Source: Bacteroidota bacterium
GTDB taxonomy: Bacteria > Bacteroidota > Bacteroidia > Chitinophagales > BACL12
Length of the DNA stretch: 64,000 bases
NCBI GenBank assembly: GCA_016124275.1
Contig: WGOA01000029.1
Coordinates: 58,877 to 122,876, forward strand
Direction: 5' to 3'
This document shows positions 2,731 through 54,984 of this stretch, in pieces (position 1 is the first letter of the stretch; each line of letters begins with the position of its first letter). Made by a program: the position numbers and the translations under genes. The notes beneath the pieces were generated by a model, which did no database searches, had not been told where the DNA came from, and was given only the letters and a program-made list of their open reading frames with translations.

Positions 2731-3765
2731 CTACGCTGTGGTCCAGGTTTCACTGCCTGCAATCAAAGCGTCCAGCGCTTCCATAGAATCAGCAATGCCG
2801 CGCTTGGCTTGTGCCTGAGCCAACTGCGCTTCCATCATCACTTCATAGACCGGGCGCTCCATAGCATAAAGTACGCCAAAAGGTCTTGGCAGGGAACCTG
2901 GCACTCCCGGGTCATCAAACATTCGCGAGAGGATCATGGCCTTGACCATGTCGCGCTCGTCATGCACCCAACAGTCTTCAAGACTGCCTTCCAAATCCAG
3001 GACAAAACTTCTCGGCGTAAACCCGTCCAGCCGTATGCCCAGCTCGCTGTTCATGCCGTAAACCAACGGCTGTCCATGCTCCAGAAAGAGGGTATTGGCG
3101 CCTTTGCTGCTCTTCTCTGTCAGCGCTTCAAATGCCCCGTCATTGAAAATGTTGCAATTCTGGTAGATCTCTAAAAAACTGGTGCCCACATGCCCGGCAG
3201 CGCGGATCAGCATCTGTTGAAGATGTTTGGGATCGCGGTCCATGCTTCTGGCTACAAACGAAGCATCAGCGCCCAGGGCCAGTGCGCCGGGATTGAACGG
3301 GTGATCAATGGAACCCAAAGGGGTGGACTTTGCCACTTTGCCCAACTCAGAAGTAGGCGAATACTGACCCTTGGTTAAACCATAGATTTGGTTATTGAAG
3401 AGCAGCATGTTGCAATCCACGTTGCGCCGCAACAAGTGAATAAAGTGATTTCCGCCAATGGACAGCCCGTCGCCGTCGCCGGTTATCAACCAGATGCTCA
3501 AATCCGGACGGGTAGCTTTCAATCCGGTAACAATGGCCGGGGCCCTTCCGTGGATGGAGTGCATTCCGTAGGTATTCATATAGTACGGAAAACGGGAAGA
3601 ACAGCCTATGCCCGAGATCATGACAATCTTTTCCCGGGGTATGCCCAATCCGGGAAGCACCGTTTGCACTTGCTTGAGGATGGAATAATCGCCGCAGCCC
3701 GGACACCAGCGGATGTCCTGATCAGTAACAAGGCTCTTTGCAGTCAGCGTTTCAGAGTCAGCCAT
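2731..3765 (-). CDS. korB: 2-oxoglutarate:ferredoxin oxidoreductase, beta subunit
   Basis: 344 aa. N-terminal CPGCGDYSIL Cys motif and TPP-binding ITGDGDGLSIGGNHFIH. Lies directly downstream of the alpha subunit. Confidence 0.9.
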   Translation of the reverse strand: MADSETLTAKSLVTDQDIRWCPGCGDYSILKQVQTVLPGLGIPREKIVMISGIGCSSRFPYYMNTYGMHSIHGRAPAIVTGLKATRPDLSIWLITGDGDGLSIGGNHFIHLLRRNVDCNMLLFNNQIYGLTKGQYSPTSELGKVAKSTPLGSIDHPFNPGALALGADASFVARSMDRDPKHLQQMLIRAAGHVGTSFLEIYQNCNIFNDGAFEALTEKSSKGANTLFLEHGQPLVYGMNSELGIRLDGFTPRSFVLDLEGSLEDCWVHDERDMVKAMILSRMFDDPGVPGSLPRPFGVLYAMERPVYEVMMEAQLAQAQAKRGIADSMEALDALIAGSETWTTA

Positions 3766-38085: not shown

Positions 38086-38178
38086 AACCCCTTCCCCTCC
38101 CCGCGCCGTTGCGTAAATTTGCGGCGCCCCTTCCCCGGAAAAAAACCGGGCCCACTAAACCGCAACCCCGTGGCCGAC

Positions 38179-40173
38179 ATGCCCGTTTTGGACCCCATCG
38201 TTTACCAGCGCCGCGATTACAGCCCCGAATGGCTGCTGACGCTCTACGCGCGCCTGCTAAAGCCCCGCATGATTGAGGAAAAAATGCTCAATCTGCTGCG
38301 TCAGGGCAAAATTTCGAAATGGTTCAGCGGCATTGGGCAGGAGGCCATCTCGGTGGCGGCCGCATCGGTGCTGCACGACGAAGAGTACATCTTTCCGATG
38401 CACCGGAACCTGGGCATTTTCACCACGCGCAATGTGCCGTTGGACCGCCTGTTTGCGCAGTTTCAGGGCAAGCCGCTGGGCTACAGCAAGGGCCGTGAGC
38501 GCTCGTTCCACTTTGGCATTCCCGAGCAGCGCATCATCGGCATGATCAGCCACCTGGGGCCACAATTGGCGCTGGCAGACGGCATTGCGCTGGCTGATTT
38601 ACTGGAAAAACAGGCCCGCGTCACCATCGTTTTTACGGGCGAAGGGGGTACGTCCGAGGGCGACTTCCACGAAGCCCTCAACGTGGCGGCGGTGTGGAAC
38701 CTGCCCGTCATTTTCGTCATTGAAAACAACGGCTACGGGTTATCGACCCCCACCTCGGAGCAGTACCGCTGCAAAACCCTTGCTGACCGCGGCATAGGAT
38801 ACGGTATGGAAGCCTGCACGATTGACGGCAACAACATTCTGGAAGTTTACGCCACCCTGGACGGCTACGCGGACAGCATCCGCCAAAACCCGCGGCCCGT
38901 GCTGGTGGAATGCATGACCTTCCGCATGCGCGGGCATGAAGAAGCCTCCGGGGTAAAATATGTGCCGCCGGCGCTCCTGGAAGCCTGGGCCCTTCGCGAC
39001 CCGGTAAGCAACTACGAAACCTGGCTGCGCGAGCAGGGCATCCTGACGGACGACTTTGCCAAAGCCCTGCGCAGCCGCATCAAGGCCGAACTGGAAGCCG
39101 GTCTTGTTACAGCCTTTAGCGCTGCGGAGCCTGCGCTGTCCGTGGCTGCGGAGCTCCGCGACATCTACCACCCGGACAGTGCGCCGGAGGTTGTCCCCAG
39201 CGGCCCAGCCCGCGAACTCCGTATGGTGGACGCTATCTCCGATGGCCTGCGCGAAAGCATGCGCCGTCACGACAACCTGGTCATCATGGGCCAGGACATC
39301 GCCGAGTACGGCGGCGTGTTCAAGATCACGCAGGGCTTCGTGGAAGAATTCGGCAAAGCGCGGGTGCGCAACACACCCATCTGCGAGTCGGCTATAGTTG
39401 GTGCAGGTATGGGCCTGAGCATCCGCGGCTGGAAATCGGTGGTGGAAATGCAGTTCGCCGACTTCGTAACCTGCGGTTTCAACCAGATCGTCAACAGTCT
39501 GGCAAAAACGCATTACAGGTGGGCTCAAAACGCCGACGTGGTGGTGCGCATGCCCACCGGCGCTGGGGTTGGCGCGGGGCCCTTCCACAGTCAGAGCAAC
39601 GAAGCCTGGTTTGCCCACACGCCCGGCCTGAAAGTGGTGTACCCGGCCACCGCCGAAGACGCCAAAGGCCTGCTCTGCGCCGCCATCGCCGACGCCAACC
39701 CGGTGCTGTTCTTTGAGCACAAAGCCCTGTACCGCTCGCTCAGCGGCATGGTGCCCGAAGGCTACTACACCACCCCCATCGGCAAAGCGCGCCTTGACCG
39801 CGAAGGTGACGACATCAGTATCATAACTTATGGTATGGGCGTGGTATGGGCCCGCGAAGCGCAGGCAGCCCATCCCGATCTCAGCATCGAAGTGCTTGAT
39901 TTGCGCACCCTCCTGCCGCTGGACTACGAAGCCATTCGAACTACGGTGAAGAAAACAGGCAAGGTGCTCATCCTGCACGAAGACACCCTGATCGGTGGCA
40001 TCGGTGGCGAGTTGGCCGCCTGGATCGGTGAGCACTGCTTCGAGCACCTGGACGCCCCGGTCATGCGCGTCGCGTCACTGGACACGCCGGTGCCGTTCTC
40101 GCTGGCGCTGGAGCAGCAGTTCTTGCCTGTGCAGCGGTTGAGGGAGGCGTTGGAGAAGTTGGTGGCATACTGA
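38179..40173 (+). CDS. Fused alpha/beta E1 component of a 2-oxoacid (branched-chain type) dehydrogenase
   Basis: The ATG at 38179 gives MPVLDPIVYQ. TPP motif GEGGTSEGDFHEALNVAAVWNLPVIFVIENNGYG in the N-terminal half. The C-terminal half is transketolase-like beta subunit (MGQDIAEYGGVFKITQGF, PTGAGVGAGPFHSQS). Confidence 0.85.
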   Translation: MPVLDPIVYQRRDYSPEWLLTLYARLLKPRMIEEKMLNLLRQGKISKWFSGIGQEAISVAAASVLHDEEYIFPMHRNLGIFTTRNVPLDRLFAQFQGKPLGYSKGRERSFHFGIPEQRIIGMISHLGPQLALADGIALADLLEKQARVTIVFTGEGGTSEGDFHEALNVAAVWNLPVIFVIENNGYGLSTPTSEQYRCKTLADRGIGYGMEACTIDGNNILEVYATLDGYADSIRQNPRPVLVECMTFRMRGHEEASGVKYVPPALLEAWALRDPVSNYETWLREQGILTDDFAKALRSRIKAELEAGLVTAFSAAEPALSVAAELRDIYHPDSAPEVVPSGPARELRMVDAISDGLRESMRRHDNLVIMGQDIAEYGGVFKITQGFVEEFGKARVRNTPICESAIVGAGMGLSIRGWKSVVEMQFADFVTCGFNQIVNSLAKTHYRWAQNADVVVRMPTGAGVGAGPFHSQSNEAWFAHTPGLKVVYPATAEDAKGLLCAAIADANPVLFFEHKALYRSLSGMVPEGYYTTPIGKARLDREGDDISIITYGMGVVWAREAQAAHPDLSIEVLDLRTLLPLDYEAIRTTVKKTGKVLILHEDTLIGGIGGELAAWIGEHCFEHLDAPVMRVASLDTPVPFSLALEQQFLPVQRLREALEKLVAY

Positions 40174-40192
40174 GGCGCACGTTTGCCCGCCT

Positions 40193-41665
40193 CTACTGTT
40201 TCACGATCCGGAAAGTCTCCTGCTTTTGTTCCCAAAGTGCATGCACAAGGTACAGTCCGGCTGGAAGTGCGGAAAGGTCTAAACGTTGGCCAGTTGCCGT
40301 GCCCTGCCAAGCCGTTCTTCCCCAGACATCATAGACGATTAACTGAGCCTGTTCAGGCCCGTTGAACGCATACAAACCACTGCTCACCGTTGGGATCATT
40401 TGCCATTGGGGAATGGGGGTTGTTTCTGGAACGGATGTGCTGCCGCCAAGTGTGTCGCAGTCGCTGCCTTCCAAAGGGCCGAGGGCGTAGTTGACAGTGT
40501 TGGGGAGGCCGAAAAAAGTGCGGTTCCCACCAAGACTAACCGTCAGAGTATCAAAATCACAGGCATACCCAGACAAGTCTGGTCTATTTATTACGGATAG
40601 AGCCATGTTCTGTGGAACGAAAACTTCGGTTGGGAAAAGCAGATGTGCTGTTCCTACATATATTCTATTATTAATTCCAAGTTCTAGCTGATGAAATGAA
40701 TACATACCAGAAACTTCTGAAAGCTTTAAAAAGTTATGAACTCCGAACTGATCAGGAATGATGCTTAGTTGGTATAGAGCAGAAGGTGTAGATAAATTTT
40801 CAGTAGTATAATATATATACTTTCCATCATGTGAAAAAGCTAGACCATATCCACCTGTTAATGTATCAATTCGCAGGATTTCTTCTTGAATTTCTCCTGT
40901 GCATCGATCGAAACTCCAAACGAACAGCTGGCTTGATCCGATCATTGCTAGTTTATCACCCGAAGGCGTGAAAACCATTTCGCCAAGTACCACTTGACTA
41001 GCACTCACTGCTTCTGATAACATGATGGGAAAGTTATTCGATTCCTGAACACCATCTTCATTAATGAGTGTCAATGATAAATGAGCTTCAGGCTGCCATC
41101 CATCATCAAACTTGATGCGCAATTGTGCAAGCCACCAATCGCGACCATTGGCATGCCGCACCGATGTACTTTTCTCTGACACACCTAGTGAGTCTTCAAG
41201 GTAAGGATATATAGGAGTTAAAGCTGACTCGCTAACTACTGCACCTAACCCACCCTCCAAACGCATATCAATTAGGGTATAAACGGCAGGATTTATCAAA
41301 TAATATAAATAATCACTTCCAGGCGCAGGCAAAATCAACGCCCCTTGAGTTGTTGAGTGGTGGGGATCCAAAAGTGTGTCGTATAAGACCCCATTCAGCA
41401 TCAAATCATGGTTTCGATTCCACACTTTAGAGCAATTCGTGTAGAACAGCAGATTACCTAGTGAATCTGAAATGGTTGCTTGGGCCTCTTTAGCTAACTG
41501 TTTAGCGCCTGACTTTGCTACAACCATGCTATCCGGCTGAAACTGCAACCAGGCTTTATCTCCAAAGATCCAATTGCTTGCCTCGGGTTGAGCCATTATT
41601 GTATTTTGGTTCCATGAACCAAAAAATAGCAAAACACTATAAATGAAAACTGTGTTCAACTTCAT
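40193..41665 (-). CDS. Secreted T9SS-cargo protein (beta-propeller-like), cassette copy A small gene
   Basis: 490 aa. Signal peptide ending IMA|Q. NWIFGDKAWLQF...ISDSLGNLLFYTN and VRHANGRDWW motifs. C-terminal sorting domain ...LYLVHALWEQKQETFRIVKQ. Paralog of 45550..47025. Confidence 0.8.
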   Translation of the reverse strand: MKLNTVFIYSVLLFFGSWNQNTIMAQPEASNWIFGDKAWLQFQPDSMVVAKSGAKQLAKEAQATISDSLGNLLFYTNCSKVWNRNHDLMLNGVLYDTLLDPHHSTTQGALILPAPGSDYLYYLINPAVYTLIDMRLEGGLGAVVSESALTPIYPYLEDSLGVSEKSTSVRHANGRDWWLAQLRIKFDDGWQPEAHLSLTLINEDGVQESNNFPIMLSEAVSASQVVLGEMVFTPSGDKLAMIGSSQLFVWSFDRCTGEIQEEILRIDTLTGGYGLAFSHDGKYIYYTTENLSTPSALYQLSIIPDQFGVHNFLKLSEVSGMYSFHQLELGINNRIYVGTAHLLFPTEVFVPQNMALSVINRPDLSGYACDFDTLTVSLGGNRTFFGLPNTVNYALGPLEGSDCDTLGGSTSVPETTPIPQWQMIPTVSSGLYAFNGPEQAQLIVYDVWGRTAWQGTATGQRLDLSALPAGLYLVHALWEQKQETFRIVKQ

Positions 41666-41669
41666 CTGA

Positions 41670-44327
41670 CTACAGTTTAGAAACGAGTGCAGAATAGGTG
41701 TATCCCCTTATGCAAGAAACGGTCAATAGATAGATGCCCTTAGGGAAATCAGTAATGTCCAACTTGATTGAATCATCTTCCGCTACCGTGCTACGAAGGC
41801 GCACAACGCCATCAATTCCTGATAAAACATATTCCGCTCCCTTCTGAATAGCTGTGCTTCCATCGATTTCCACAACCAAGAACCCGGAGGTTGGATTAGG
41901 GTATAACAAAATCGGCTTTGTACCGACGGTGCCAAGATTACCCTGCCTGGGAGAAAGAGAGGCATCTATCGGAGCTAATGAATGCTGGCCAAGAATTGCT
42001 CGGGCAAAATAAACCGCATCTCCTCCATCAGTTGGATCCAAACCAGCAATAGTATGAAGAGTTGCCGTCTCACTTGAAGTGTAAGGGAGCCTGCCACCTA
42101 AAACTGCCTCCATGGCTAAACTGTCTGCTGATCGATTTAGGTATAGTGTATAAACATCCTGCCGCAATTGGTCCTTGAGACAATTAGGTACGATGGAATT
42201 CAACTTGAGCTGAGCAGAATCTACCGAGCCAGACTTTAGGTAATTAAAGAACAAGTACCACTCGTCGTAGTTGCCCAAAGCCAATTCATTCATTGCGGCA
42301 ACGTACAGGACATCTTGTGGCACATCAAGCGTCAACCAATCGGGATTGTAAGCAAAGAAATTGTACACATAGCTTTTCTCCTCATAGAAATCGCAATCAG
42401 AGCCGTCGTTGGAATCAAGCAAGTAATGAAAAGCTGAGAACAGATTGTTCCGAGCCTTCTGGGAAGGAGCTACACCCCGACCTGCGAGTCTTGGCGTTAA
42501 ATCGCATACCAAACTCGAAGAACCGGCAAGTAGTGGATCTACTCTCCTTGTACCGCTACCTATCTCTAAATTGAATGTGGCTATCGGTGCCATGTCCATA
42601 AATGCACCGTAGATAGTGGTGTAACGCCAATCAAATATCGGTGGAAAGGTGGCAGGAAACAATGGAGTCCCTAGCGTTGGATCTCCAAATGCATTGGTAA
42701 CCGCAATAGTTCTGTTTGCTGTACTTGCCGGGAACCAACTGTTCCCTGCAGCAGTCAACGTGCTAAGATTCTCGGTAATCGGTCCTATGTCCAAGCCACC
42801 ACCATCCATGCCCACCAAGCCAAATCCATATCGGCACTCATTCATCGTATTGCAGGTGAAGTTACCCCCTTGGCAATCGCCGTGGGCTGCTGCACCTACG
42901 CCGAAATCATTCATCTCATTGCGGTCAACCAAAAAATTCTGTGCCTCCGTAATATCGATACCCCGTATGTTCGTATTCATGCAGGATGTACATCCACTAC
43001 TGATGGTGTTATCAAGCACAACAAGGCCCGGTGAATATTCTGCATGAATACCTATAGAAAATTCTCCACTACATGTTCCAGGCAAGCGGACCGAAATCGT
43101 GTTCTCCGATATCTCTGCTAGGGCGCTGATTACCGAAATGCCAAATTGCAATCTGCTCAACTCGTTATTGGTAACGGAACTATAGCCACCCAGCGATGCC
43201 CGCAACTCGATTCCCGCAATCCGGCAGCTTGAATTGCTTACTACATTGGGGTTGTCCAATGTATTGTTATCAATTCCGCACGAACCTTCGGCGTTTCTTA
43301 TATAAATACCAATGCTGTCAAAATTACTGATCGTGTTGTTGATTACCTGACTATTGCCAGTTTCGTGGTACCAAACCCCATGGTTCATGGTTGGATCTGC
43401 CCCCCCTGAGCCAATGATAAGGTTGTTATCTGTAATGGAGCTTGTCATCTTAAGCGTAAAGACTCCCTTTTCACAATCTTCTATCCGGTTGTTGAATCCT
43501 GTGACGCCCGCATCTGGATATCCCACGTAAAGATTCTGATTGAAGGCATTGCCTACTGCAGCAATTCCTGCGCCAGTTCCAAATCCGGGAACTGCATTCC
43601 ATGTTCGAATGTCCTTGATCCAGTTGTTTTGGACATAGGCTATGCTTCTGGTGAAAAGTAAGCCATACTCCTGATCGTGGATAAAATTGTAACTCCCTCC
43701 GGAACCGTAAGAACTTGATGTCCGGCCAACGGTGATTCCGTCTGTAATACCATCAGCCCGCAATCCTGCGAATCCAAAACGGCCCAAATAAGGAGCAATC
43801 AAACTCGGGGCTCCGATCTCCGAGTTTTCTATAGTTCCTGGATGATTGCCCCCAAAAGGTCTTACATCGATTCCAATATAATTGTTCATCAAACGGCTAC
43901 CCCGCACTTCGAAGTTGCCCGGGTTGCCGGTTGCGTTCTCGATCAACAATGCCGTCTCAGCATGCTCTACCAGGCTGTTCACACGCACGCGAACCGCTCC
44001 TCCCGGTTCCACTCGGATTTGCTCCCACATGCTGTTCTCGCAATTGCTGATCACACTGGTCTCTATGGTCAGGGTATAGTCATCCTTGACCACGATCTCC
44101 ACACCGGCATCAACCAGGACGGAACACGTAAGGATGGTGAAGTTGTTGTTGACTTCAAAGGTGTTCTGAATATGCACCAACTCCGAAGTCCAACCCGTAC
44201 CATAGCTCGTCGACATCGAAACCGTTCCGGACGGCGTGGTCACCGTCGGCGAAAAACCCGCATCCGCCACACACTGAGCGCGCATGGGCGTGGAAAACCC
44301 TATGCCATAGACAAGTGTGCACATCAC
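41670..44327 (-). CDS. Secreted right-handed beta-helix repeat protein with a T9SS C-terminal domain, cassette copy A large gene (conserved ATG at 44403 is out of frame)
   Basis: 885 aa from the GTG at 44327. NNxI/IxDN-type beta-helix repeats throughout. C-terminal LLYPNPTSGFLVVEI...KGIYLLTV sorting domain. Paralog of 47038..49776. The upstream frame stays open through the (CA)n tract but lacks a start codon. Confidence 0.8.
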   Translation of the reverse strand: MMCTLVYGIGFSTPMRAQCVADAGFSPTVTTPSGTVSMSTSYGTGWTSELVHIQNTFEVNNNFTILTCSVLVDAGVEIVVKDDYTLTIETSVISNCENSMWEQIRVEPGGAVRVRVNSLVEHAETALLIENATGNPGNFEVRGSRLMNNYIGIDVRPFGGNHPGTIENSEIGAPSLIAPYLGRFGFAGLRADGITDGITVGRTSSSYGSGGSYNFIHDQEYGLLFTRSIAYVQNNWIKDIRTWNAVPGFGTGAGIAAVGNAFNQNLYVGYPDAGVTGFNNRIEDCEKGVFTLKMTSSITDNNLIIGSGGADPTMNHGVWYHETGNSQVINNTISNFDSIGIYIRNAEGSCGIDNNTLDNPNVVSNSSCRIAGIELRASLGGYSSVTNNELSRLQFGISVISALAEISENTISVRLPGTCSGEFSIGIHAEYSPGLVVLDNTISSGCTSCMNTNIRGIDITEAQNFLVDRNEMNDFGVGAAAHGDCQGGNFTCNTMNECRYGFGLVGMDGGGLDIGPITENLSTLTAAGNSWFPASTANRTIAVTNAFGDPTLGTPLFPATFPPIFDWRYTTIYGAFMDMAPIATFNLEIGSGTRRVDPLLAGSSSLVCDLTPRLAGRGVAPSQKARNNLFSAFHYLLDSNDGSDCDFYEEKSYVYNFFAYNPDWLTLDVPQDVLYVAAMNELALGNYDEWYLFFNYLKSGSVDSAQLKLNSIVPNCLKDQLRQDVYTLYLNRSADSLAMEAVLGGRLPYTSSETATLHTIAGLDPTDGGDAVYFARAILGQHSLAPIDASLSPRQGNLGTVGTKPILLYPNPTSGFLVVEIDGSTAIQKGAEYVLSGIDGVVRLRSTVAEDDSIKLDITDFPKGIYLLTVSCIRGYTYSALVSKL

Positions 44328-44364
44328 AAGGAAAACAGATGCCCAGTTAACCCATGCGTATTTC

Positions 44365-44391
44365 TGTGTCTGTGTGTGTGTGTGTGTGTGT
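44365..44391. repeat. Dinucleotide microsatellite: minus strand (CA)10 followed by GACACA
   Basis: The plus strand reads tgtgtc + (tg)10 + t at 44365-44391. Lies between the conserved ATG (44403) and the body of the 885-aa ORF. Confidence 0.95.
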
Positions 44392-44403
44392 TGCGGCTTC
44401 CAT

Positions 44404-44495
44404 AGCTTAATTAATGTGTGTTACGAAAATGCAATAAAGGCAAGGTAGTGCTTTTGACCGCAGCTCACAGCATGTTTTGTGTTAATTTTTATAAA
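44404..44495 (-). promoter_or_regulatory. Conserved upstream region of cassette copy A (putative promoter/5' leader)
   Basis: Shares blocks with 49777..49868 (minus strand: AAAAATTAACACAAAA and AAAGCACTAyCTTGCsTTTATTGCATTTTCGTAAyACACATTArTTAAGCTATG). No clear -7 TAnnTTTG box recognised. Confidence 0.35.
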
Positions 44496-44498
44496 AGA

Positions 44499-45512
44499 CT
44501 ACATCCCCGCCAACAGAACCGCCAACGTCTCCCCCACCGCTCTTAGCGTCTGTCGGCTGATGATCGGCATGTCATCGCGGTGGGTGTGCCAGAAGTCGCC
44601 GAAGCCTTTGGGGCTTTCGCGGTCATATTGAATGATGTCAATGGTGGGGATGCCCGCGATTTGGTTGACGTACAGGTGGTCATCCGTCAGCGGGGGAAAG
44701 GGCTCCTGGTTGTACACAAAATACGAGCGATGCCCAGCCGTTGCAGCAGCGCGCCACACCCGCTCCACGACGTCGGGGGCGTAATGCATCGAAATGCCTT
44801 CGCGGTAAAACACGGCGCCTTCCGCGCCCACCATATCCAACAGTATGCCGAACTCGGCCGAGTACCCCGTCTTTCGCGCCTGCGTGGCCCAATACTGGCT
44901 GCCCAGGCAATAGCTGTCCTCGACCTTTGGATTGCCGTAATCTTCGGTGTCAAACAGCACCATATCTATTCCTATGTCGGGGTCATTCCGGTGGAATTGC
45001 CTCGCGAGCTCGAGCAGCACCGCAACCCCGCTTCCCCCGTCATTGGCGCCCGCAATGGGCTCACTCTGCCGCGCAGAGTCTTCGTCTGCCACGGGGCGCG
45101 TGTCCCAATGGGCGCAGAGCAGCACCCGCCGCGGATGCTCCGGGTTGAAGCGCGCCGTGATGTTGCGCACCGGCAGGGTCTTGCCGTCCCAGGCCTTGAC
45201 CGTGGTTTTCTGCTCGCTGACCTCGTCCGCCCACCCGCTCAGCGCCTGCACCAGCCAGTCGCCGCACGCCTCGTGGGCAGCTGTACCCGGCACGCGCGGG
45301 CCAAACGCCACCTGCTTAGCTACGTACGCATACGCGGAGTCGGTGGAAAAGGGGGGTGGGACAACCCGCTCCACAACTTGTGGAACCTCTGGATGCGCTT
45401 GGTCTTGTTGCTTGTCCCGCTTGTTTTCACAGCCACTTAGGGAACCAACCAACGAACCTGCCAGCAACAATAAACTACCCGCCTGATAAACTTGCTTGTG
45501 GAAAAGAAACAT
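44499..45512 (-). CDS. Glutaminyl-peptide cyclotransferase (M28-fold, type II QC) lipoprotein
   Basis: 337 aa. Lipobox LSGC. LLCAHWDTRP, ANDGGSGVAVLLELAR, VLFDTEDYG, ILLDMVGA and DFWHTHRDD line up with the metal and catalytic motifs I recall for animal-type and Porphyromonas QC. Confidence 0.7.
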   Translation of the reverse strand: MFLFHKQVYQAGSLLLLAGSLVGSLSGCENKRDKQQDQAHPEVPQVVERVVPPPFSTDSAYAYVAKQVAFGPRVPGTAAHEACGDWLVQALSGWADEVSEQKTTVKAWDGKTLPVRNITARFNPEHPRRVLLCAHWDTRPVADEDSARQSEPIAGANDGGSGVAVLLELARQFHRNDPDIGIDMVLFDTEDYGNPKVEDSYCLGSQYWATQARKTGYSAEFGILLDMVGAEGAVFYREGISMHYAPDVVERVWRAAATAGHRSYFVYNQEPFPPLTDDHLYVNQIAGIPTIDIIQYDRESPKGFGDFWHTHRDDMPIISRQTLRAVGETLAVLLAGM

Positions 45513-45549
45513 CCCGTGAAGCTAGCAATTTGGGCACGTTTGACGGTCC

Positions 45550-47025
45550 TTATTGCTTCACGATCCGGAAGGTCGCTTGCTTTTGTTCCCACTGAGCATG
45601 CACGAGGTAAAGTCCGGTGGGCAAGGTTGAAAGGTCTATGCGCTGACCAGTTGCCGAGCCTTGCCAAACCGTTCTTCCCCAGACATCATACACTATCAAT
45701 ATTGCATGGTCAGGCCCGTTAAACGAATACCATCCTGCACTTACCGTGGGTGTGATTTGCCATTGGGGCAGGGTGGATGCTTCAGGAATGGCTGTGCTGC
45801 CGCCGTCTAGCGTATCGCATTCGCTGCCTTCAAGCGGGCCGAGGGCGTAGTTGACGGTGTTGGGGAGGGCCAACATAGTCCTTCTGCCGCCTAGGTACAG
45901 TCCCAATGTATCGAAATCACAAGACAATCCGGGCAAATCCGGATAATTGATTACACTTAAATTCATATTCAAAGCTGAGAAAATATCACAATTCAAAATT
46001 TTGCAACCTACTGTCATGTAAATTTTATGATCCGGGCCCATTTGCAGCTGCCCATTCGCAAATGTCCCATAATTACTACGTATATATATTTTATTTAATG
46101 CAAATTTCCCAAACTGATCTGCCTCTAAATCCAATTGGTACAAAATATTATCTCCTATATAAAATGCCGATGAACTATTAAAATACAAGTATCTTCCAGA
46201 TGGAGAAAACTCGCAAGAATGAAGATTTGATAATGAATCTACATATATTATTTCACTCCCGATTAGACCACCACACCTATCAAACTGATAGATACTAATA
46301 CTTGTGGGAAAGACTATTGCAATTGAACTCCCGGTTGGTGATATTGCCATTTGTCGAAAAGTACTAGCTGAAGTAGCGGCACGAAGGTCTAATTGAAATA
46401 TTTCCTCGACATACACTCCGTTATTGTTATTTAAATACAACACGAAAGAACTATCCCAACTTTCAGTGGCCAAATTAAAAGATGCTCGCATCTGGATTAT
46501 CCACCAATCCCTGCCATTGCCATGCCGGACAGCTACATTTCTCTCACTCCAACCAGGTACATCGGAATCGAATGGCTGCCAATTCGGAACATTCGCCATG
46601 CCCCCTAAGCCACCATTCATTGACATATCTACAATGGCATAGCGTCCAATACCAACAATTCGGTATTTGTTCTCCTGGCCATATTCTGGAAGAATTAGGA
46701 CTCCCTGAGAGTAGGACTTATAAAATGATGTATCACCGATTGGAATCTCCATTTCTGAAATCACCTCACCCAATCGATTATACACCTCTACGCCATTCGT
46801 ATAAAACAGCAAGTTTCCTAACGAGTCCGAAATACTTGCCGCAGCTTCAATGGTAGAAAACTCCAATGGCTCTTCCTTGACATCTGGTACTCCTGTGCTG
46901 AAGTCAATTAAGATATCACCATCAAGAACCCAATTAAAATGCTCTGGTTGTGCTGTAGCACTGCAGACCATAAAAACAAATGTAAAAGATGCCAAAATTT
47001 TGGCGCAGTTTAAGGTCGTAACCAT
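45550..47025 (-). CDS. Secreted T9SS-cargo protein (beta-propeller-like), cassette copy B small gene
   Basis: 491 aa. Signal peptide ending ATA|Q. SISDSLGNLLFYTN and VRHGNGRDWW. C-terminal ...LYLVHAQWEQKQATFRIVKQ. Confidence 0.8.
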   Translation of the reverse strand: MVTTLNCAKILASFTFVFMVCSATAQPEHFNWVLDGDILIDFSTGVPDVKEEPLEFSTIEAAASISDSLGNLLFYTNGVEVYNRLGEVISEMEIPIGDTSFYKSYSQGVLILPEYGQENKYRIVGIGRYAIVDMSMNGGLGGMANVPNWQPFDSDVPGWSERNVAVRHGNGRDWWIIQMRASFNLATESWDSSFVLYLNNNNGVYVEEIFQLDLRAATSASTFRQMAISPTGSSIAIVFPTSISIYQFDRCGGLIGSEIIYVDSLSNLHSCEFSPSGRYLYFNSSSAFYIGDNILYQLDLEADQFGKFALNKIYIRSNYGTFANGQLQMGPDHKIYMTVGCKILNCDIFSALNMNLSVINYPDLPGLSCDFDTLGLYLGGRRTMLALPNTVNYALGPLEGSECDTLDGGSTAIPEASTLPQWQITPTVSAGWYSFNGPDHAILIVYDVWGRTVWQGSATGQRIDLSTLPTGLYLVHAQWEQKQATFRIVKQ

Positions 47026-47037
47026 ATAGCGTTAGTT

Positions 47038-49776
47038 TTATAGCTTTGAAAACTTGATCACTTGACGCTGACCTGCTTTAGCAATGACTTCGATGTGGTA
47101 AAGACCTGCGGAAAGTTTGGACACATCTACACAACCCGATGCAAATGCTCCTGACATCAGTTGTCTGCCCTGTAGGTCGACGATGTTAAACATTTGTGAT
47201 GCAGCAGAAGCTTCTGAACCCTTGGAAAGACACAACTGCGTTGAAACCGGATTGGGGTAAACATCTATTTGTTTCCGCATATCAGTGACAGGAGCTTGCT
47301 CTCGCAGACTTCCGTCCAAATCGATTGGCGCAAGGGAGTTTGCTCCGACAATGGCGCGTGCAACATAAACTGCAGAGCCATCCGAATCAGGATTTCCTTG
47401 CGCAATGGCGATCAATGTATCTAATTCTGCCTCACTGTAGGGGAGTAGACCGGATACGCCGAACTCTACATGTAGGCTACCTAAACTCCGGTTCAAGAAA
47501 AGCTGATAAACCTCCTTGCGCAACTCTTCCTTTCTGCAGGAAGGTATCAAGCCATTAAGGGTCATAGAGGCGGAATCCAGAACCGTGCGGCCCAAATAGT
47601 CAAAAAACAGATGCCACTCATCGTAATTTGCTGCTGCCAGTTCCTCCACAACGGCTTGGTAATAGGCATCCTGAGCAACGCCCAAGGTTAACCAATCCGG
47701 GTTGCCCGCAAAGAAGTTATAGATGTAGGACTTCTCCTCAAAGTAATCACAGTTGTCTAAACTGACTCCTTCAAAGTATGTAGCATAGGCTGCAAACAAG
47801 TTGTTCCTGGCTTTCTGAGAGGGTTCACCAGTTGTTCGTAGTCCACCTAGTCTGGGGATTATGTCGCAGGGAAGGGAGGAACTTGCAGCCGTGAGGGGAA
47901 CTACTCTGAAACTTGGTAGTGATAAACTAGATGTCTCAAGGTTGAATGTAGTAATCGGTGCCATGTCATGACTAGAGCCTAAGCCAGCATCGTACCGCCA
48001 ATCGATATCCGGCGTAGCACCCGGAATTATCGGAGTACCGTAAGTTGGGATGCTTGCTGCACTCGTCACTGCAATGGTCCGGTTTGCTGTGCTGGAAGGA
48101 AGCCAGCGATTCCCTGCGGCATTAAGTAGAGATACATCATCAGTAATAGGTCCAATGTCCAGTCCACCACCGTCCATGCCGACCAAGCCATACCCATACG
48201 TGCAATCATCAACTTCATTGCACGTAAAATTCCCGCCCTGGCAATCTCCATGGGCGGCCCCTCCTACACCGCTCTCTTGCATCGTGTTACCATCCACCAA
48301 AAATCCCTCACACTCCGTAATGTCAATGGCGCGGATGTTGGTATTACTGCACGAAGGACAGTCGCTGTTGATGACATTGTCCAACAACACAAAATCAACT
48401 GAGTTCTCTGCCTGGATGCCAACCGAAAAAGCACTGCTGCAGCCTGTAGGCAATCGGTGGTTGATGATGTTGCCCGTTGCCGTTGTTCGTGCGCTGATTG
48501 TGGCCATGCCAAATTGAACGTTGTCAATCGTGTTCGTGGTGATGTCAACGATATCGTTTACTCCCATGCGTACTTCAATGCCCGCTATGCGACAAGAAGA
48601 GTTGGTAACAATGGTGGGATTGTCCAATTCATTGTCTTCAATCAACACGCGGCCCACAAAACTCCTGACGTAAATGCCAATGCTGTCAAACTCTTCAATG
48701 ATGTTGTTGGTCACCTCACCATTCTTGCCTAACTCCTGGTACCATACACCAATGTCCATGGTAGGCGTGCTTCCGCCTGAACCAAAAATCTCGTTGTTGT
48801 CGGTAAACGCCTCGTCAATGTCGTATGCCAAAACGCCTACTTCACAGTCTTCAATCCTGTTGTTGATGCCGGTTACGCCCACTCCGGGAAAGCCAACATG
48901 CAATTCTTTTGACACGCCCCCACTGGTTCCTGTTGCAGCAATCCCTACGCCTTTGATTACTGACATGGATGGGTTAAAGGTGCGGATGTTTTCAATCCAG
49001 TTGTTCTGAACAAAGGCTAAACAATTGTTGAAGAACAAGCCGTACTCCAAATCATGAATGTAGTTAAAACTGCCTCCTGCTCCATAGGAGCTTGTTGTAC
49101 GACCTACCGTGATGCCGTAGACAATGCCTGTTGCCTGCAACCCGGAGAAACCAATTTCGCCCAAATACGGAGCTATAAGGCTTGGCGCACCGATCTCTGA
49201 GTTTTCGATGGTCCCGGGGTGTCCTCCGAGGTCGGCAAATGCCTGCACTTCGATGCCCACATAATTATTCATTAACCTGCTGCCCCGGACTTCGAAATTC
49301 CCGGGATTCCCCGTCGCATTCTCAATCTGCAAGGCCTTCTCCGCATTCTGAACCAAACTGTTCAACCGCACACGAACCGCCCCACCCGGCTCCACCCGGA
49401 TATGCTCCCACATGCTGTTATCGCAATTGCTGATAACGCTGGTTTCTATGGTGAGTATATTACCGTTCTCAACCACAATTTCCACCCCTGCATCAACCAA
49501 GACAGAACAAGTAAGGATGGTAAAGTCATCGTCAACCTCAAACGTGTTCTGAATATGAACCAGCTCCGCAGTCCAGCCCGTACCATAAGTTGAAGAAACT
49601 GAAACAGAACCCGATGGCGTCGTCACAGTCGGCGAAAAACCCGCATCAGCCGCACACTGAGCGCGCATGGGCGTGGAAAAACCTATGCTGTAGAGAAGTG
49701 CGCACATCATCAGGAAAACAGATGGCCAGTTAACCCATGCGTAATTCTGTGTGTGTGTGTGTGTTGCGGCTTTCAT
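47038..49776 (-). CDS. Secreted right-handed beta-helix repeat protein with a T9SS C-terminal domain, cassette copy B large gene (intact)
   Basis: 912 aa from the ATG at 49776 (MKAATHTHTQNYAWVNWPSVFLMMCALLYSIGFSTPMRA|QC). Beta-helix repeats. C-terminal VYPNPVSTQLCL...AGLYHIEVI sorting domain. Confidence 0.85.
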   Translation of the reverse strand: MKAATHTHTQNYAWVNWPSVFLMMCALLYSIGFSTPMRAQCAADAGFSPTVTTPSGSVSVSSTYGTGWTAELVHIQNTFEVDDDFTILTCSVLVDAGVEIVVENGNILTIETSVISNCDNSMWEHIRVEPGGAVRVRLNSLVQNAEKALQIENATGNPGNFEVRGSRLMNNYVGIEVQAFADLGGHPGTIENSEIGAPSLIAPYLGEIGFSGLQATGIVYGITVGRTTSSYGAGGSFNYIHDLEYGLFFNNCLAFVQNNWIENIRTFNPSMSVIKGVGIAATGTSGGVSKELHVGFPGVGVTGINNRIEDCEVGVLAYDIDEAFTDNNEIFGSGGSTPTMDIGVWYQELGKNGEVTNNIIEEFDSIGIYVRSFVGRVLIEDNELDNPTIVTNSSCRIAGIEVRMGVNDIVDITTNTIDNVQFGMATISARTTATGNIINHRLPTGCSSAFSVGIQAENSVDFVLLDNVINSDCPSCSNTNIRAIDITECEGFLVDGNTMQESGVGGAAHGDCQGGNFTCNEVDDCTYGYGLVGMDGGGLDIGPITDDVSLLNAAGNRWLPSSTANRTIAVTSAASIPTYGTPIIPGATPDIDWRYDAGLGSSHDMAPITTFNLETSSLSLPSFRVVPLTAASSSLPCDIIPRLGGLRTTGEPSQKARNNLFAAYATYFEGVSLDNCDYFEEKSYIYNFFAGNPDWLTLGVAQDAYYQAVVEELAAANYDEWHLFFDYLGRTVLDSASMTLNGLIPSCRKEELRKEVYQLFLNRSLGSLHVEFGVSGLLPYSEAELDTLIAIAQGNPDSDGSAVYVARAIVGANSLAPIDLDGSLREQAPVTDMRKQIDVYPNPVSTQLCLSKGSEASAASQMFNIVDLQGRQLMSGAFASGCVDVSKLSAGLYHIEVIAKAGQRQVIKFSKL
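49748..49764. repeat. Dinucleotide microsatellite: minus strand (CA)8 inside codons 5-10 of the 912-aa gene
   Basis: The plus strand reads (tg)8 + t at 49748-49764. Encodes THTHTQ. Confidence 0.95.
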
Positions 49777-49868
49777 AGCTTAACTAATGTGTATTACGAA
49801 AATGCAATAAACGCAAGATAGTGCTTTCTTCTACACTTTAAAGAGCTTTTTGTGTTAATTTTTGAAAA
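49777..49868 (-). promoter_or_regulatory. Conserved upstream region of cassette copy B (putative promoter/5' leader)
   Basis: Homologous to 44404..44495 (see that feature). Confidence 0.35.
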
Positions 49869-49871
49869 AAT

Positions 49872-50981
49872 CTACTTTCCCAACTCCACCACAATTGGGT
49901 AATGATCGGTAATCTTTCTGGGAAGCGCCGAATAACGCAGCACTTCCAAAGCTGTATCCACCAAAACGTAGTCGATGCGCACACCGGGCAAAGAAGCGTG
50001 CGTGCGGGCTAAACCGCGGCCAGCTACAGAGAAGGCGTCCTGCAAACCAAAAGATACCCTATGGTATGCATAACTTTGCGGAGGGTCGTTGAAATCGCCG
50101 CAGAGTACCACAGGCCAGGGACTATCCAGTACAGCATCCTCCAACCGGGTGGCTTGGTCGGCGCGGGCTTGATACGCATCGCGGAATTTGAGCAAGGTAA
50201 CCCGGCGGGTATTGGCTTCGCTCAATTCAGAAACGGCATCATCGAGGCCGAAGTCTTCCGTAGATAAATGTATGCTTTGCAGGTGGGTGTTGAAGATACG
50301 GATCCGGCCGGATGGGGTCTCCAGGTCGGCGTATTGGCAACCGTTGAGCACGCCCCCCCCCGGAAAATCGACCTCCCCGGCCTCCAGCACAGGGTAGCGC
50401 GACACAATGGCCAGCCCCCACTGCCGTCCCTTCTTATCGCGCAGCGCTTCCCAAAAACTGAAGTAGGGCAAACCGGTTGCCTCGCGCACCAGCTTCTGGT
50501 GGTCATTGCCTTCTACAGTTGGCATCGTGAAGTACTCCTGAAAACAGATCACGTCAGGCTGCTGGGCAGCCAGAAGGGCCAGAATGGAATCGCGGCCTGC
50601 GAACCGCACATCCGGTGTGTTCTTGTTAAACACGCGCACGTTCCACGATAGAATGCGCAGCGAAGACGGTTGCGCTGTGGCAAGGCTGTCCAGCCCTTCC
50701 ACCGAACGTTCCTTTCCAAAAGACACATAAGGCCAGCGCAGATAGTGTGCACTTTCGCGCAAGGCCGGAAGCAAGGCAACCGCCGCAATGCCCGCAAAAA
50801 CCCATTTGCGGCCAGCCAGCCAGAAAATCAGAAACAGCCCCTGCAGCCCCACTAAAATGGGAAACACCAGGCCGGCAAATGCCGCCGGCCAAAACGTGCG
50901 CGGGTCCAGGTAAGGCGCCATATAGGCCACCCCCAGCGCAGCCATGACAGCCAGGTTTAGTAAAAATCCGATCCAGCGCAT
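49872..50981 (-). CDS. Endonuclease/exonuclease/phosphatase (EEP) family membrane protein
   Basis: 369 aa. About 3 N-terminal TM segments. EEP motifs LRILSWNV, VLCGDFND and ITDHYPIVVEL. Confidence 0.8.
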   Translation of the reverse strand: MRWIGFLLNLAVMAALGVAYMAPYLDPRTFWPAAFAGLVFPILVGLQGLFLIFWLAGRKWVFAGIAAVALLPALRESAHYLRWPYVSFGKERSVEGLDSLATAQPSSLRILSWNVRVFNKNTPDVRFAGRDSILALLAAQQPDVICFQEYFTMPTVEGNDHQKLVREATGLPYFSFWEALRDKKGRQWGLAIVSRYPVLEAGEVDFPGGGVLNGCQYADLETPSGRIRIFNTHLQSIHLSTEDFGLDDAVSELSEANTRRVTLLKFRDAYQARADQATRLEDAVLDSPWPVVLCGDFNDPPQSYAYHRVSFGLQDAFSVAGRGLARTHASLPGVRIDYVLVDTALEVLRYSALPRKITDHYPIVVELGK

Positions 50982-52714: not shown

Positions 52715-54634
52715 TCAGGATCGTTTCTTAAAACGGGCTGCCAGTTCAGACAATCCGAGCGTGACGCAGGTCAGGTTGCCATCCGGGCTTGAATAGGGCA
52801 CCATACAGGCAAAAAGGCCGTCGATCAACTCGCGCATTTCCGCCAGGCCCAGCTTGCGACCTGCCGGAATGGCATAGGTTTTGGCCAGGCTGCGGGCCAC
52901 GCGATCGCGCGGGGCCAGTCCGGGAACCTCTCCTAAACTGCGGAAGGCCTCCAGGAGTTCATCAACCGCCAACTTTTCGTCCATTTCCGTACAATCTGCA
53001 GGCAATCCGTGCAGCACAAACGAGTGAGGACCAAAGGGTTGCACGTCAAAACCCAGGCTGTTGACCGCGGGCATCAGGGAGCGCAGCAACTCGGCATCGC
53101 CCGGCGAAAGGTCAATGGTTTGCGGAAACAACTGCCGCTGGCAACTTCCCGCCCCCGCCTCCAGCCGTTGCAGGTACTTCTCGTACAAAATCCGCTCGTG
53201 CGCGGCCCGCTGATCCAGCATCAGAAGCCCGGACTTGATGGGGCACAAAATAAACCTTCCATGCAGTTGGTAGGGCTCTGCAGTGTCCCCATCGCTGAAA
53301 GCTTCGGCCGTTTCGCTTACCCCGGTTAGCCTTTCGGGCGAAGGGCCGCCGTTCACTTCCCGACCGGAGCGCTCCCGCTCCGGCACCCGCTCACTTTCCG
53401 CGTCACCGGCGCGTTCGCGTGCCGCCACTTCGAACAGAGCCTCCCAGGGCTGGGTCCCCCCCGCCCCCCGCCGCATCGAAGCGGGCATCGGCTGTCCGTA
53501 ATCCCCCCCCTGCCCCAACCTGCCGGGGGTGCGCAACGCTGTTGGCATGGGCTGCACATCCCCTTCCACCGAACGCAAGGGGCGCCGGAAAGCCTCCAGG
53601 TCAACCATGTCGGGATCCACGTCAAAATCGAGCGTGGGGGTGGCGCTGAACCGGCTCAGGGCATGCCGCACCGCCGCCTGCAGAATGGCGTAAACCGCGC
53701 GCTCGTCTTCAAAGCGAATCTCCTCTTTGGTGGGGTGCACGTTCACATCCACCTGCGCGGGGTCAACCTCCAAAAACAACACATAAAGCGGATAATGTTT
53801 CTCCGGAATCAGCTTTTCATAACAACTCTGCACCGCGTGGTGCAAATAGCTGCTTCTAAAAAAACGCCCGTTGAGAAAAAAATACTGCTCGCCGCGCAGC
53901 TTGCGTACACTGTCCGGTTTGCCGACAAAACCTTCCACCGTCAGCATCGGCGTCTGCTCGGAAACCGGCACCAGCCGCTCGTTTGACGGCTTGCCGAGCA
54001 CAGCCACCACGCGCTGCCGCGCATTGGCCGGTTTGAGGTTGTACATTTCCACGCCGTTGTGGTCCAGCGTCAGGTGCACATCGGGATTGACCAGCGCCAG
54101 CCGCTGAAATTCGTCCACAATGCGGCGCATTTCGGCATTGCCGGAGCGAAGAAAATTTCGCCGGGCGGGAACATTGTAAAACAAATGCTGCACCGACACC
54201 GAAGTACCGAACGGCGCTTCACAAGGCTCTTCCAGCAGCACTTTTGAAGCATCCACCAACACTCTCCAGCCGGTTTCATCGTCGGCGCGGCGGGTGCGCA
54301 ATTCCACCTTGGCCACCGACGAAATGGCCGCGAGCGCTTCGCCGCGAAAACCCATGGTGCGCAGCGTGAACAGGTCTTCAATGCGCGAAATTTTGGACGT
54401 AGCATGGCGTTCAAAACACAGCCGGGCATCTTCAGGCCCCATGCCGCTGCCGTTGTCCACCACCTGCAACAGGGCCTTTCCGGAATCGCGCACCAACACG
54501 CGCACCACCGTTGCCCCGGCGTCCAGGGCATTTTCCACCAGTTCTTTAATGACGGACGAAGGGCGTTGCACCACCTCGCCCGCGGCGATCTGGTTGGCTA
54601 TGGCCTCCGGTAAGCGTTGAATGAGTGCCGTCAT
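52715..54634 (-). CDS. mutL: DNA mismatch repair protein MutL
   Basis: The ATG at 54634 gives MTALIQRLPEAIANQIAAGEVVQRPSSVIKELVENALDAG. DNGSGM and GFRGEAL motifs. C-terminal dimerisation domain with QRAAHERILYEK. Confidence 0.9.
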   Translation of the reverse strand: MTALIQRLPEAIANQIAAGEVVQRPSSVIKELVENALDAGATVVRVLVRDSGKALLQVVDNGSGMGPEDARLCFERHATSKISRIEDLFTLRTMGFRGEALAAISSVAKVELRTRRADDETGWRVLVDASKVLLEEPCEAPFGTSVSVQHLFYNVPARRNFLRSGNAEMRRIVDEFQRLALVNPDVHLTLDHNGVEMYNLKPANARQRVVAVLGKPSNERLVPVSEQTPMLTVEGFVGKPDSVRKLRGEQYFFLNGRFFRSSYLHHAVQSCYEKLIPEKHYPLYVLFLEVDPAQVDVNVHPTKEEIRFEDERAVYAILQAAVRHALSRFSATPTLDFDVDPDMVDLEAFRRPLRSVEGDVQPMPTALRTPGRLGQGGDYGQPMPASMRRGAGGTQPWEALFEVAARERAGDAESERVPERERSGREVNGGPSPERLTGVSETAEAFSDGDTAEPYQLHGRFILCPIKSGLLMLDQRAAHERILYEKYLQRLEAGAGSCQRQLFPQTIDLSPGDAELLRSLMPAVNSLGFDVQPFGPHSFVLHGLPADCTEMDEKLAVDELLEAFRSLGEVPGLAPRDRVARSLAKTYAIPAGRKLGLAEMRELIDGLFACMVPYSSPDGNLTCVTLGLSELAARFKKRS

Positions 54635-54663
54635 GTTAAGGGTCCGCACAGGGCCGGAATGCC

Positions 54664-54984
54664 TCAGCGAAAAATGATGAAACAAGCCAGCGCCAGCAGC
54701 GCGGCCAGGATATAAACCATGCGCCGGTTGCTTTCAGAACCGTAGCGTTTTTTGGCTCTGAGGCTGCTCATGGGGCCAAAAATGTCCACTTGCTGGCCCG
54801 TTGAGGCCGCTTCCTGTTCGCGCCGCTCTTCGGATCGGTAAAAACGAATCCTTTTTTCACGCTCCTCCTTTTCCGGGTCAGAGAACCGGAAATGGTACTG
54901 GAATTTACGCGGTTTAGGGGGTTTAAACACGGGGAGCAGTTGCCGGGCGAAGGGATCTTGTGACGCTCCCCAAAGGTACGCCAT
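54664..54984 (-). CDS. Hypothetical small protein with a C-terminal TM anchor
   Basis: The track ORF runs to 55059. The ATG at 54984 gives MAYLWGASQDP. Charged middle region and C-terminal hydrophobic VYILAALLALACFIIF. No family recognised. Confidence 0.4.
   Translation of the reverse strand: MAYLWGASQDPFARQLLPVFKPPKPRKFQYHFRFSDPEKEEREKRIRFYRSEERREQEAASTGQQVDIFGPMSSLRAKKRYGSESNRRMVYILAALLALACFIIFR

Follow-up and report, generated by a model that had tools for sequence, protein, structure and literature searches.

Why should a bacterium carry, twice and side by side, the same pair of genes with ends that are alike and interiors that are deeply diverged? This question is raised by a locus on contig WGOA01000029.1 of an uncultured Chitinophagales bacterium, which was analyzed as a window of 64,000 nt; all positions are those of this 64-kb window. 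The locus contains two cassettes, designated A and B, each composed of a big gene (bigA, bigB) followed by a small gene (smA, smB), and all four products carry a C-terminal sorting domain of the type IX secretion system (T9SS). We propose that the region varies the cell surface as a contingency locus, in which slipped-strand mispairing at a dinucleotide tract would switch expression ON and OFF and cassettes would be exchanged by recombination, and we give this reading a probability of about 0.6.

All cassette genes are on the reverse strand. The duplicated unit of cassette B (45534-49881) comprises the upstream region, bigB (47038-49776, an open reading frame (ORF) of 912 aa), smB (45550-47025, 491 aa) and 16 nt beyond the smB stop codon. 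That of cassette A (40177-44508) contains the main ORF of bigA (41670-44327; 885 aa from GTG 44327 or ATG 44324) and smA (40193-41665, 490 aa). The units were delimited by blastn of one cassette against the other as direct repeats (families D1-D4). Gaps between big and small genes are 12 nt in B and 4 nt in A. The preliminary description had reported a two-gene cassette present twice in direct orientation with a spacing of 4-12 nt, and on this the ORF map and blastn agree.

A dinucleotide tract of variable length in the big gene

Both big genes have a (CA)n tract that starts 9 nt past an ATG. In bigB this is a (CA)8 tract at 49748-49763 (reverse strand), following the ATG at 49774-49776. The coding strand reads ATG AAA GCC GCA (AC)8, in frame with the entire 912-aa ORF (MKAATHTHTQNYAWVNWPSVFLMMC...), and the in-frame tract yields MKAATHTHTQNY... 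and the full ORF, the ON state. In bigA a (CA)10 tract is found at 44371-44390 (reverse strand), following the ATG at 44401-44403; the coding strand reads ATG GAA GCC GCA (AC)10 AGACACAG..., and the frame of this ATG stops after 18 codons at TAA 44347-44349. With n=10 the main ORF of bigA is out of frame (OFF), and one added CA unit would restore the frame. ORF calling starts bigA at GTG 44327 because its main ORF lies in a frame other than that of the upstream ATG. The two tracts are the sole dinucleotide repeats of at least six units in the 64 kb. They had escaped notice in the preliminary description, which reported about 90 nt of conserved sequence upstream of the genes: 78 positions indeed match, with one indel within a (TG)n run that is the dinucleotide repeat itself, but part of this sequence is the start of the coding region.

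The tract differs in length among nearly identical genomes. An independent assembly, L087 (related sequences are referred to by such locus numbers), is 99.91% identical to window positions 49943-44362 over 5584 nt, and the only indel is an extra CA in the tract of cassette B; with n=9 this copy is out of frame, and the gene caller begins the protein at M37. Four assemblies of the L003 strain, which are 99.80-99.87% identical and encode an identical 885-aa protein, have n=11, 7, 8 and 8, and when they are aligned in pairs no gap occurs outside the tract. L084 has 13 units and L001 has 10. The locus has the features of a simple-sequence repeat (SSR) contingency locus, that is, a repeat in the 5′ coding region or promoter whose unit number varies among near-identical genomes, and our confidence that the tract is hypermutable is high.

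Artefacts of assembly or sequencing could imitate both the length differences and the duplication, a concern raised by the fact that all sequences are metagenome assemblies and that contig L087 ends 9 nt past the tract of cassette A. However, the tracts span 14-26 nt, far below read and k-mer length, and five lengths were observed among otherwise near-identical contigs of different samples. In addition, L087 covers cassette B, the glutaminyl-cyclase-like gene (QC) between the cassettes and the start of cassette A at 99.9% identity, which argues that the duplication is not an assembly artefact, and the same layout recurs in L089. An artefactual origin is hardly credible.

Is the tract translated? 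In an alignment of five sequences with diverged surroundings, the ATG, the 9-nt spacer and the tract do not vary. All big genes of the clade have the tract 9 nt past a conserved ATG, and in every copy the main frame can be read upstream through the tract without a stop. The in-frame version begins with MK... and has a long n-region, a hydrophobic core and an A|Q motif, and distant homologs of the big protein (BIG homologs) have similar signal peptides. If the upstream ATG is the true start, changes in length would shift the big gene into and out of frame with it, and the tract may serve as a translational ON/OFF switch, an assignment in which our confidence is moderate.

Several observations weigh against such a switch. 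Only 1 of about 11 tract observations is in frame (cassette B of the window), with P ~0.08 under a random expectation of 1/3; the OFF copies are cassette A of the window, cassette B of L087, L001, L090-93, L084 and both copies in L089. The tract of L089 is interrupted (ACACACACCCACACACACA) and is out of frame in both copies. Translation could also begin at an internal ATG or GTG (MMC...), giving a short, uncharged signal peptide, and an internal Met is what gene callers choose. Read in one of the alternative frames, the leader ORF ends with TGATG or TAATG, which overlaps the internal ATG; this arrangement is classical for reinitiation, which is therefore conceivable here. These observations favor an alternative in which (CA)n is a hypermutable but neutral microsatellite of the leader, or a rheostat that works via a short upstream ORF, and the big protein is always made from the internal ATG or GTG. 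The low share of in-frame copies fits an OFF-biased switch and a tract in an untranslated leader equally. However, a neutral leader would explain neither the invariance of the ATG, spacer and tract amid diverging flanks nor the frame that stays open through the tract in all copies. The short start would give a signal peptide of 17 residues without a charged n-region, whereas the family has long ones beginning with MK.... Furthermore, the SSR of the homolog in L076 is unavoidably coding, and SSRs are enriched at the 5′ ends of BIG genes in unrelated lineages (see below). We consider this alternative, whether neutral leader or rheostat, unlikely.

Under the proposed switch, each cassette would be a two-gene operon for T9SS-exported, probably surface-anchored beta-helix and beta-propeller proteins, and the tract, following the start codon of the first gene and preceding its signal peptide, would set the expression of each cassette independently. 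Slipped-strand mispairing would alter n by whole units, and one length class in three would keep the ATG in frame, so that translation of the big gene would toggle between one in-frame and two out-of-frame states; in the window, B (n=8) would be ON and A (n=10) OFF. OFF would presumably mean absent or poor export. The small gene, 4-12 nt downstream, is presumably cotranscribed with the big gene. The selective agent is likely one that recognizes surface proteins, and phages, grazers or competitors may be considered.

SSRs were also detected in distant homologs. In L076, ATG AAA ACT (ACTC)5 precedes the signal peptide in frame, and no alternative start is present from the tract to the cleavage site. 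L061 and L073 carry G9 and C9, respectively, at comparable positions. Overall, non-A/T SSRs occurred at 5 of 30 BIG 5′ ends versus 0.34 expected by random placement, and none of 2000 permutations reached 5. The small genes of L080 each contain C11 (7545-7555 and 9136-9146) just past an HGNGRDWW motif; one of these tandem copies keeps its frame and the other loses it exactly at C11, which suggests that a homopolymer may act as a switch in the small gene of this other lineage. We also observed a compound (AC)5-C9 repeat in L083 (3590-3606), which is intergenic and lies ~500 nt upstream of a BIG homolog on a Saprospiraceae chromosome.

Conserved ends and diverged interiors

Cassettes A and B match by blastn only in their end blocks and in a single 218-nt interior patch. 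The 5′ block of A (43618-44454, reverse strand; partner in B 48995-49827) includes the leader, the SSR, the signal peptide and the first ~200-240 codons, with 81.6% identity over the first 591 nt (43867-44454 vs 49250-49827) and 77% over 848 nt when extended. The 3′ block (40177-40508, reverse strand; partner in B 45534-45868) includes the last ~105 codons of the small gene plus 16 nt, encodes the motif preceding the C-terminal domain (CTD), a linker and the CTD, and is 79.8% identical over 337 nt. It had been estimated by eye that roughly 9 of 10 bases are identical at the 5′ ends, and that alignable, GC-rich 3′ ends surround AT-rich and much diverged interiors. The computed values bear this out: 113 of 128 positions (88%) are identical between 44231-44358 and 49617-49744, the 3′ ends are richer in GC than the interiors, and neither divergence nor GC is uniform along the cassettes. 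Interior nucleotide identity is 35-60%, and identity at third codon positions in a codon-aware alignment is ~0.3 in the interior compared to ~0.6 at the ends. Interiors have a GC content of 0.33-0.48 versus ~0.60 in the flanks; at third codon positions (GC3) it is 0.34-0.50 in the interiors, 0.54-0.60 in the ends and 0.64-0.78 in neighboring genes, and at second positions (GC2) it is equal throughout. At the amino acid level, the same alignment gave 60% identity for the big proteins and 45% for the small ones.

The preliminary description had portrayed the promoter, signal peptide and sorting signal as the constant parts. The conserved ends agree with this in part. The 5′ block does include the signal peptide but also spans ~200 codons of the mature protein, and the sorting domain of the big gene is not constant: the CTD of the big protein is its least conserved segment, with 20-30% amino acid identity.

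What has kept the ends alike? It might suffice that the cassette was duplicated in tandem long ago and the copies then diverged in the ordinary way, with the ends maintained by constraint on the encoded parts and with no recombination. Purifying selection accounts for part of the conservation, as nonsynonymous divergence (pN) is 0.08-0.21 at the ends and 0.3-0.6 in the interior, and is 3-5 times lower at the ends in every pair, including cross-genome pairs. Similarly, synonymous divergence (pS) at the 3′ end of the small gene is ~0.5-0.65 in all pairs, not within genomes alone, and the motifs preceding the CTD are conserved across the family. Between A and B of the window, the 3′ block has a pS of 0.55 and a pN of 0.12-0.21, compared to 0.73-0.87 and 0.43-0.52 in the interior.

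However, constraint on the protein does not explain several comparisons with relatives. A four-way alignment revealed two deep types, one comprising window A and L003 (~77% nucleotide identity throughout) and the other window B, L084 (76%) and L001. Interiors of cross-type pairs are 35-60% identical, and ends are 70-85% identical in every pair. L003 and L084 are from the same species, with 97.75% identity in 3.2 kb of flanking sequence, and have an A-type and a B-type cassette, respectively, at the same locus. Identity is 91.8% across the upstream region and the initial ~715 nt of the big gene, after which the sequences are essentially unalignable; over codons 1-60, 61-130 and 131-220, pS is 0.18, 0.04 and 0.46, and it is 0.84 beyond. 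This is a within-species allelic replacement of the cassette body. Between the two cassettes of L089, a 488-nt stretch at the 5′ end shows 98.6% identity and the final 264 nt show 92.8%, and the interiors between these ends are unalignable.

The window itself points in the same direction. The upstream region, which includes noncoding sequence, and the first ~150 nt are 0.79-0.85 alike between A and B versus 0.45-0.75 between same-type cassettes of different genomes. The cassette type adjacent to a 2-oxoacid dehydrogenase E1 gene (E1dh) differs among relatives, although this flank is 85-87% identical at the nucleotide level between the window and relatives whose cassette interiors cannot be aligned. 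In distant lineages, near-identical C-termini of small genes on diverged bodies were found in 14 of 31 within-locus pairs and in 18 of 150 between-locus controls; for example, within-locus small-gene paralogs of L015 are 39% identical in the body and 93% in the CTD. Ends and middles have incongruent histories, the 5′ end grouping by genome or species and the interior by type, as read from pairwise identities and pS in the four-way alignment plus L089. Constraint without recombination is quite improbable in our assessment. The preliminary description had suggested that recombination or gene conversion, or repeated module replacement, acts through constant ends; the L003/L084 pair, L089 and the 5′ identity within the window support this, and our confidence in a recombination mosaic is high.

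The recombination signal of the window taken by itself is modest, which tempers this reading. Its ends are ~80% identical, and pS is lowered only in the first 60-130 codons (0.44, 0.63 and 0.89 for codons 1-60, 61-130 and 131-220). The longest exact matches between A and B are 28, 25, 22 and 20 nt, all within the end blocks (those of 28 and 25 nt in the 5′ block); with a longest match of 28 nt, the conversion signal in the window is old. We also rejected one apparent similarity: the 3′ end of smA had seemed to share with L001 the 87% identity of the E1dh flank, and the four-way alignment gave 0.69-0.77.

Within the contingency locus, recombination would act on a slower time scale than slippage. 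The passenger parts would fall into deeply diverged types (A, B and two or more others), which homologous recombination via the conserved ends would carry between loci, strains and species, and gene conversion would homogenize the ends within a genome.

The low GC of the interiors has suggested a further explanation, which is compatible with a contingency locus: that the interiors are foreign modules from lower-GC Bacteroidota and form a horizontally exchanged island. The GC3 deficit is large with equal GC2, the mean flank GC of the family is 0.42, and small genes are ~0.10 below their flanks where genome GC exceeds 0.50. The A type also occurs at 77% nucleotide identity in a different context in L003, while a closer relative of the window, L089, has other types; in addition, an Abi_2 gene (abortive-infection family) is inserted beside the L003 cassette. 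However, genes that are OFF most of the time could also reach a low GC3 by drifting towards AT, and the data are compatible with both import and drift. No genes for an integrase, transposase, invertase or reverse transcriptase were found among the ORFs at 36-54 kb, and inverted repeats in the region were limited to chance-level ones of 16-20 nt, with no terminal inverted repeats. L003 and the window have no flank genes in common, so genome relatedness could not be calibrated from them. We regard import as a tentative possibility. The Abi_2 insertion is 1.1 kb long, lies directly upstream of the L003 cassette (5971-7058) and is absent at the corresponding position in L084 (3202-3236).

A small cluster of differences was noted between the window and L087. 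Besides the extra CA, the two differ only by three substitutions, which fall within 8 nt (47918-47925, bigB codons ~617-620) and are all nonsynonymous, changing SSLSLPS to SSVTPPS. Micro-conversion from cassette A was considered, and the sequence of A does not match the three differences. The cluster suggests either a micro-recombination patch or local selection.

Predicted products of the cassettes

All four proteins exceed the 23-bit cut-off of the T9SS type A sorting domain model TIGR04183 (smA 33.2, bigA 25.6, smB 38.0 and bigB 28.1 bits), in agreement with the earlier assignment of C-terminal sorting domains to both genes of the pair. bigB also matches PF18962 (32.3 bits), and the predicted CTD folds resemble those of NucA, RemA and mirolase. 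No T9SS machinery components were found among the ORFs scanned within the 64 kb. An A|Q motif closes the hydrophobic N-terminus in all four proteins (by inspection only), and Q26 is more than 90% conserved in the small family. Sec signal peptides of Bacteroidetes typically expose a Gln after cleavage, known as the Q-rule (PMC5837995), and the motif together with the conserved Gln fits a predicted cleavage of this kind.

The big protein is predicted to be a right-handed beta-helix protein. bigA matches Pfam Beta_helix PF13229 (41.5 bits; gathering cut-off 25.9 bits) and NosD PF05048. bigB has no Beta_helix Pfam match, is 60% identical to bigA, and has a beta-helix at residues ~65-500 in an AlphaFold2 (AF2) model, preceded by a long putative signal peptide and followed by a low-confidence linker, a helical domain (~654-810) and the CTD (839-910). 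This model rests on a shallow alignment, with a predicted local distance difference test score (pLDDT) of 60, because word-indexed homolog searches with bigB and a 7-sequence profile returned only 8 proteins; such low confidence is a further weakness of our proposal. Foldseek matches were weak and included AlgG/AlgE epimerases, PL6 lyases, tailspikes and T9SS CTDs. These polysaccharide-active proteins and phage tailspikes share the right-handed beta-helix fold class with the big protein, and TM-scores to the low-confidence model were low. No catalytic residues were identified in the big protein, and a role as an adhesin is equally possible.

The small protein has a putative signal peptide with the A|Q motif, a beta-propeller, a linker and a T9SS type A CTD. 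The AF2 model of smB (pLDDT 89) shows a single beta-propeller plus the CTD, and Foldseek returned propellers, with PorZ (PDB 5m11) as the top match (E 1.2e-8). The small-family profile matches WD40/YVTN propellers and T9SS CTDs, and the protein matched no named NCBIfam or Pfam family besides the CTD. Like the small protein, PorZ has a propeller followed by a T9SS CTD, but it contains two propellers and belongs, as a single-copy component, to the attachment complex, whereas the small protein has one propeller and belongs to a multi-copy hypervariable family. Membership in the PorZ family was rejected on the basis of the single propeller and the lack of a sequence-family match; the likeness is at the level of fold. 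PADLOC models of anti-phage defense matched none of the four proteins.

Distribution of the gene pair

More than 1700 relatives of the small protein were found, all of them unnamed "T9SS type A sorting domain-containing" proteins, in metagenome-assembled genomes (MAGs) of Chitinophagales, Saprospiraceae, Flavobacteriales and other Bacteroidia. For the big protein, 265 representative relatives were found at E <=1e-3 and 70 at <=1e-10. A locus scan with one genome per species yielded at least 590 matching stretches. From these, 80 loci were retained, and several MAGs supplied 2-4 loci each. By tblastn and an iterated hidden Markov model, a BIG homolog (ORFs up to ~2300 aa) was located directly upstream of 1-3 tandem small genes in ~43 of 83 loci. 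The question left by the preliminary description, whether the two genes are also neighbors elsewhere, is thereby answered, and this adjacency together with several loci per MAG identifies the pair as a recurrent multi-copy module. A protein-guided scan of JGI metagenome contigs supplied two loci, both of which were used; an exact-pattern scan of these contigs for the tract with its conserved flank gave no match.

Two relatives share the genomic context of the window. In L001, the Chitinophagales MAG JTS-RE84, the gene order is MutL-rhomboid-rhomboid-EEP-QC-big-small-E1dh (EEP, endonuclease/exonuclease/phosphatase family) with one cassette, so the EEP-QC adjacency without cassette B, also raised earlier as a check, does exist in a relative. 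L089, which is from the same organism as L004, L085 and L088, is closer to the window than L001 (rhomboids 94-97%, E1dh 93% and EEP 90% amino acid identity) and has the layout of the window, EEP-[cassette]-QC-[cassette]-E1dh. The big gene of its first cassette (3269-3680) is an internal-deletion remnant, in which ~125 N-terminal codons are joined to the last ~10 (...STALISKL*), and is followed by an intact small gene. The cassette of L003 and L084 is located in an unrelated MacB/OEP context.

Relation to known variable systems

SSR phase variation combined with mosaic recombination is textbook knowledge for host-adapted pathogens. Neisseria opa genes carry CTCTT pentamer repeats in the region coding for the leader peptide, and occur at multiple loci with recombining hypervariable regions. 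The cassettes resemble opa in having an SSR that would lie inside the coding region of the signal peptide, several loci that would switch independently, and conserved ends with reshuffled middles; they differ in repeat unit (2 nt rather than 5 nt), protein class, secretion route, phylum and ecology. The known phase variation in Bacteroidales relies on invertible promoters and shufflons, which depend on site-specific invertases and inverted repeats. These systems belong to the same phylum and have the same apparent purpose, surface heterogeneity, but the mechanism proposed here is SSR slippage plus homologous recombination, and invertible promoters and shufflons are excluded at this locus because neither invertase genes nor suitable inverted repeats are present. 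To our knowledge, surface variation in Bacteroidota has been attributed almost entirely to DNA inversions.

The Hop adhesins of Helicobacter pylori (babA/babB/babC, sabA/sabB, hopZ, oipA) are similar in that a 5′ dinucleotide repeat by the signal peptide switches the frame by slipped-strand mispairing, and in that fast ON/OFF switching is joined by slower mosaic exchange among paralogous loci. CT repeats are located in the 5′ coding region of Hop genes, and gene conversion between babA and babB and between sabA and sabB produces chimeras (PMC3960876). Hop proteins are beta-barrels of the outer membrane, each encoded by a single gene with CT repeats, in a host-restricted pathogen of the Campylobacterota. 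The cassettes, in contrast, are putative two-gene operons of environmental Chitinophagales for T9SS cargo of soluble folds, and their proposed switch consists of CA repeats.

No report of SSR switching of T9SS cargo was found in the open-access literature. A broader interpretation, which we offer as tentative, is that the big-small T9SS pair is a widespread multi-copy variable-surface system of environmental Bacteroidota (Chitinophagales, Saprospiraceae and Flavobacteriales), in which the SSR switches ((CA)n, (ACTC)n and poly-G/C) evolved independently in several lineages and the types are held by negative frequency-dependent selection, for example as receptors of phages or grazers. It might then be the first contingency-locus system described for T9SS cargo, and likewise the first in Bacteroidota that are free-living or inhabit activated sludge or mats. 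If so, uncultured environmental Bacteroidota would run pathogen-like bet-hedging on T9SS-displayed proteins, and the >1700 proteins annotated only by their sorting domain would gain a name and a testable role. Tract length would also be a marker readable in metagenomic reads, by which ON/OFF states could be tracked against phage or grazer pressure in wastewater and mats.

Neighboring genes and other repeats

The QC gene that separates the cassettes (44499-45512, reverse strand; M28 family, PF04389 1e-35) lies outside the repeat. It is flanked by two cassettes whose four cargo proteins all show the A|Q motif of Q-rule substrates; because the cassette is located elsewhere in L003 and L084, this adjacency is probably incidental. 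Upstream of cassette B is the EEP gene (49872-50981, reverse strand; PF03372), syntenic in L001 and L089, and downstream of cassette A is E1dh (38119-40173, forward strand; PF00676/PF02779/PF02780), convergent with smA. A scan for sigma-70 promoters and terminators gave results at or below the shuffle expectation, with models unsuited to Bacteroidota promoters.

A mismatch repair gene, mutL (52715-54685), lies three genes away from cassette B on its upstream side, and L001 and L089 share this synteny. Mismatch repair governs the stability of dinucleotide repeats, although the proximity is probably a coincidence. The EEP gene contains a G9 run on its coding strand (50353-50361) that encodes PGGG and is retained in L089 and absent in L001; it was set aside as a candidate switch, being conserved in L089 and encoding PGGG.

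Finally, two large ORFs in another part of the window, 20779-23013 (reverse strand, 744 aa) and 23133-24635 (500 aa), had no Pfam match at 1e-5. The former overlaps a forward-strand ORF (21826-23004), and a C9 run (21883-21891) lies within these overlapping frames.

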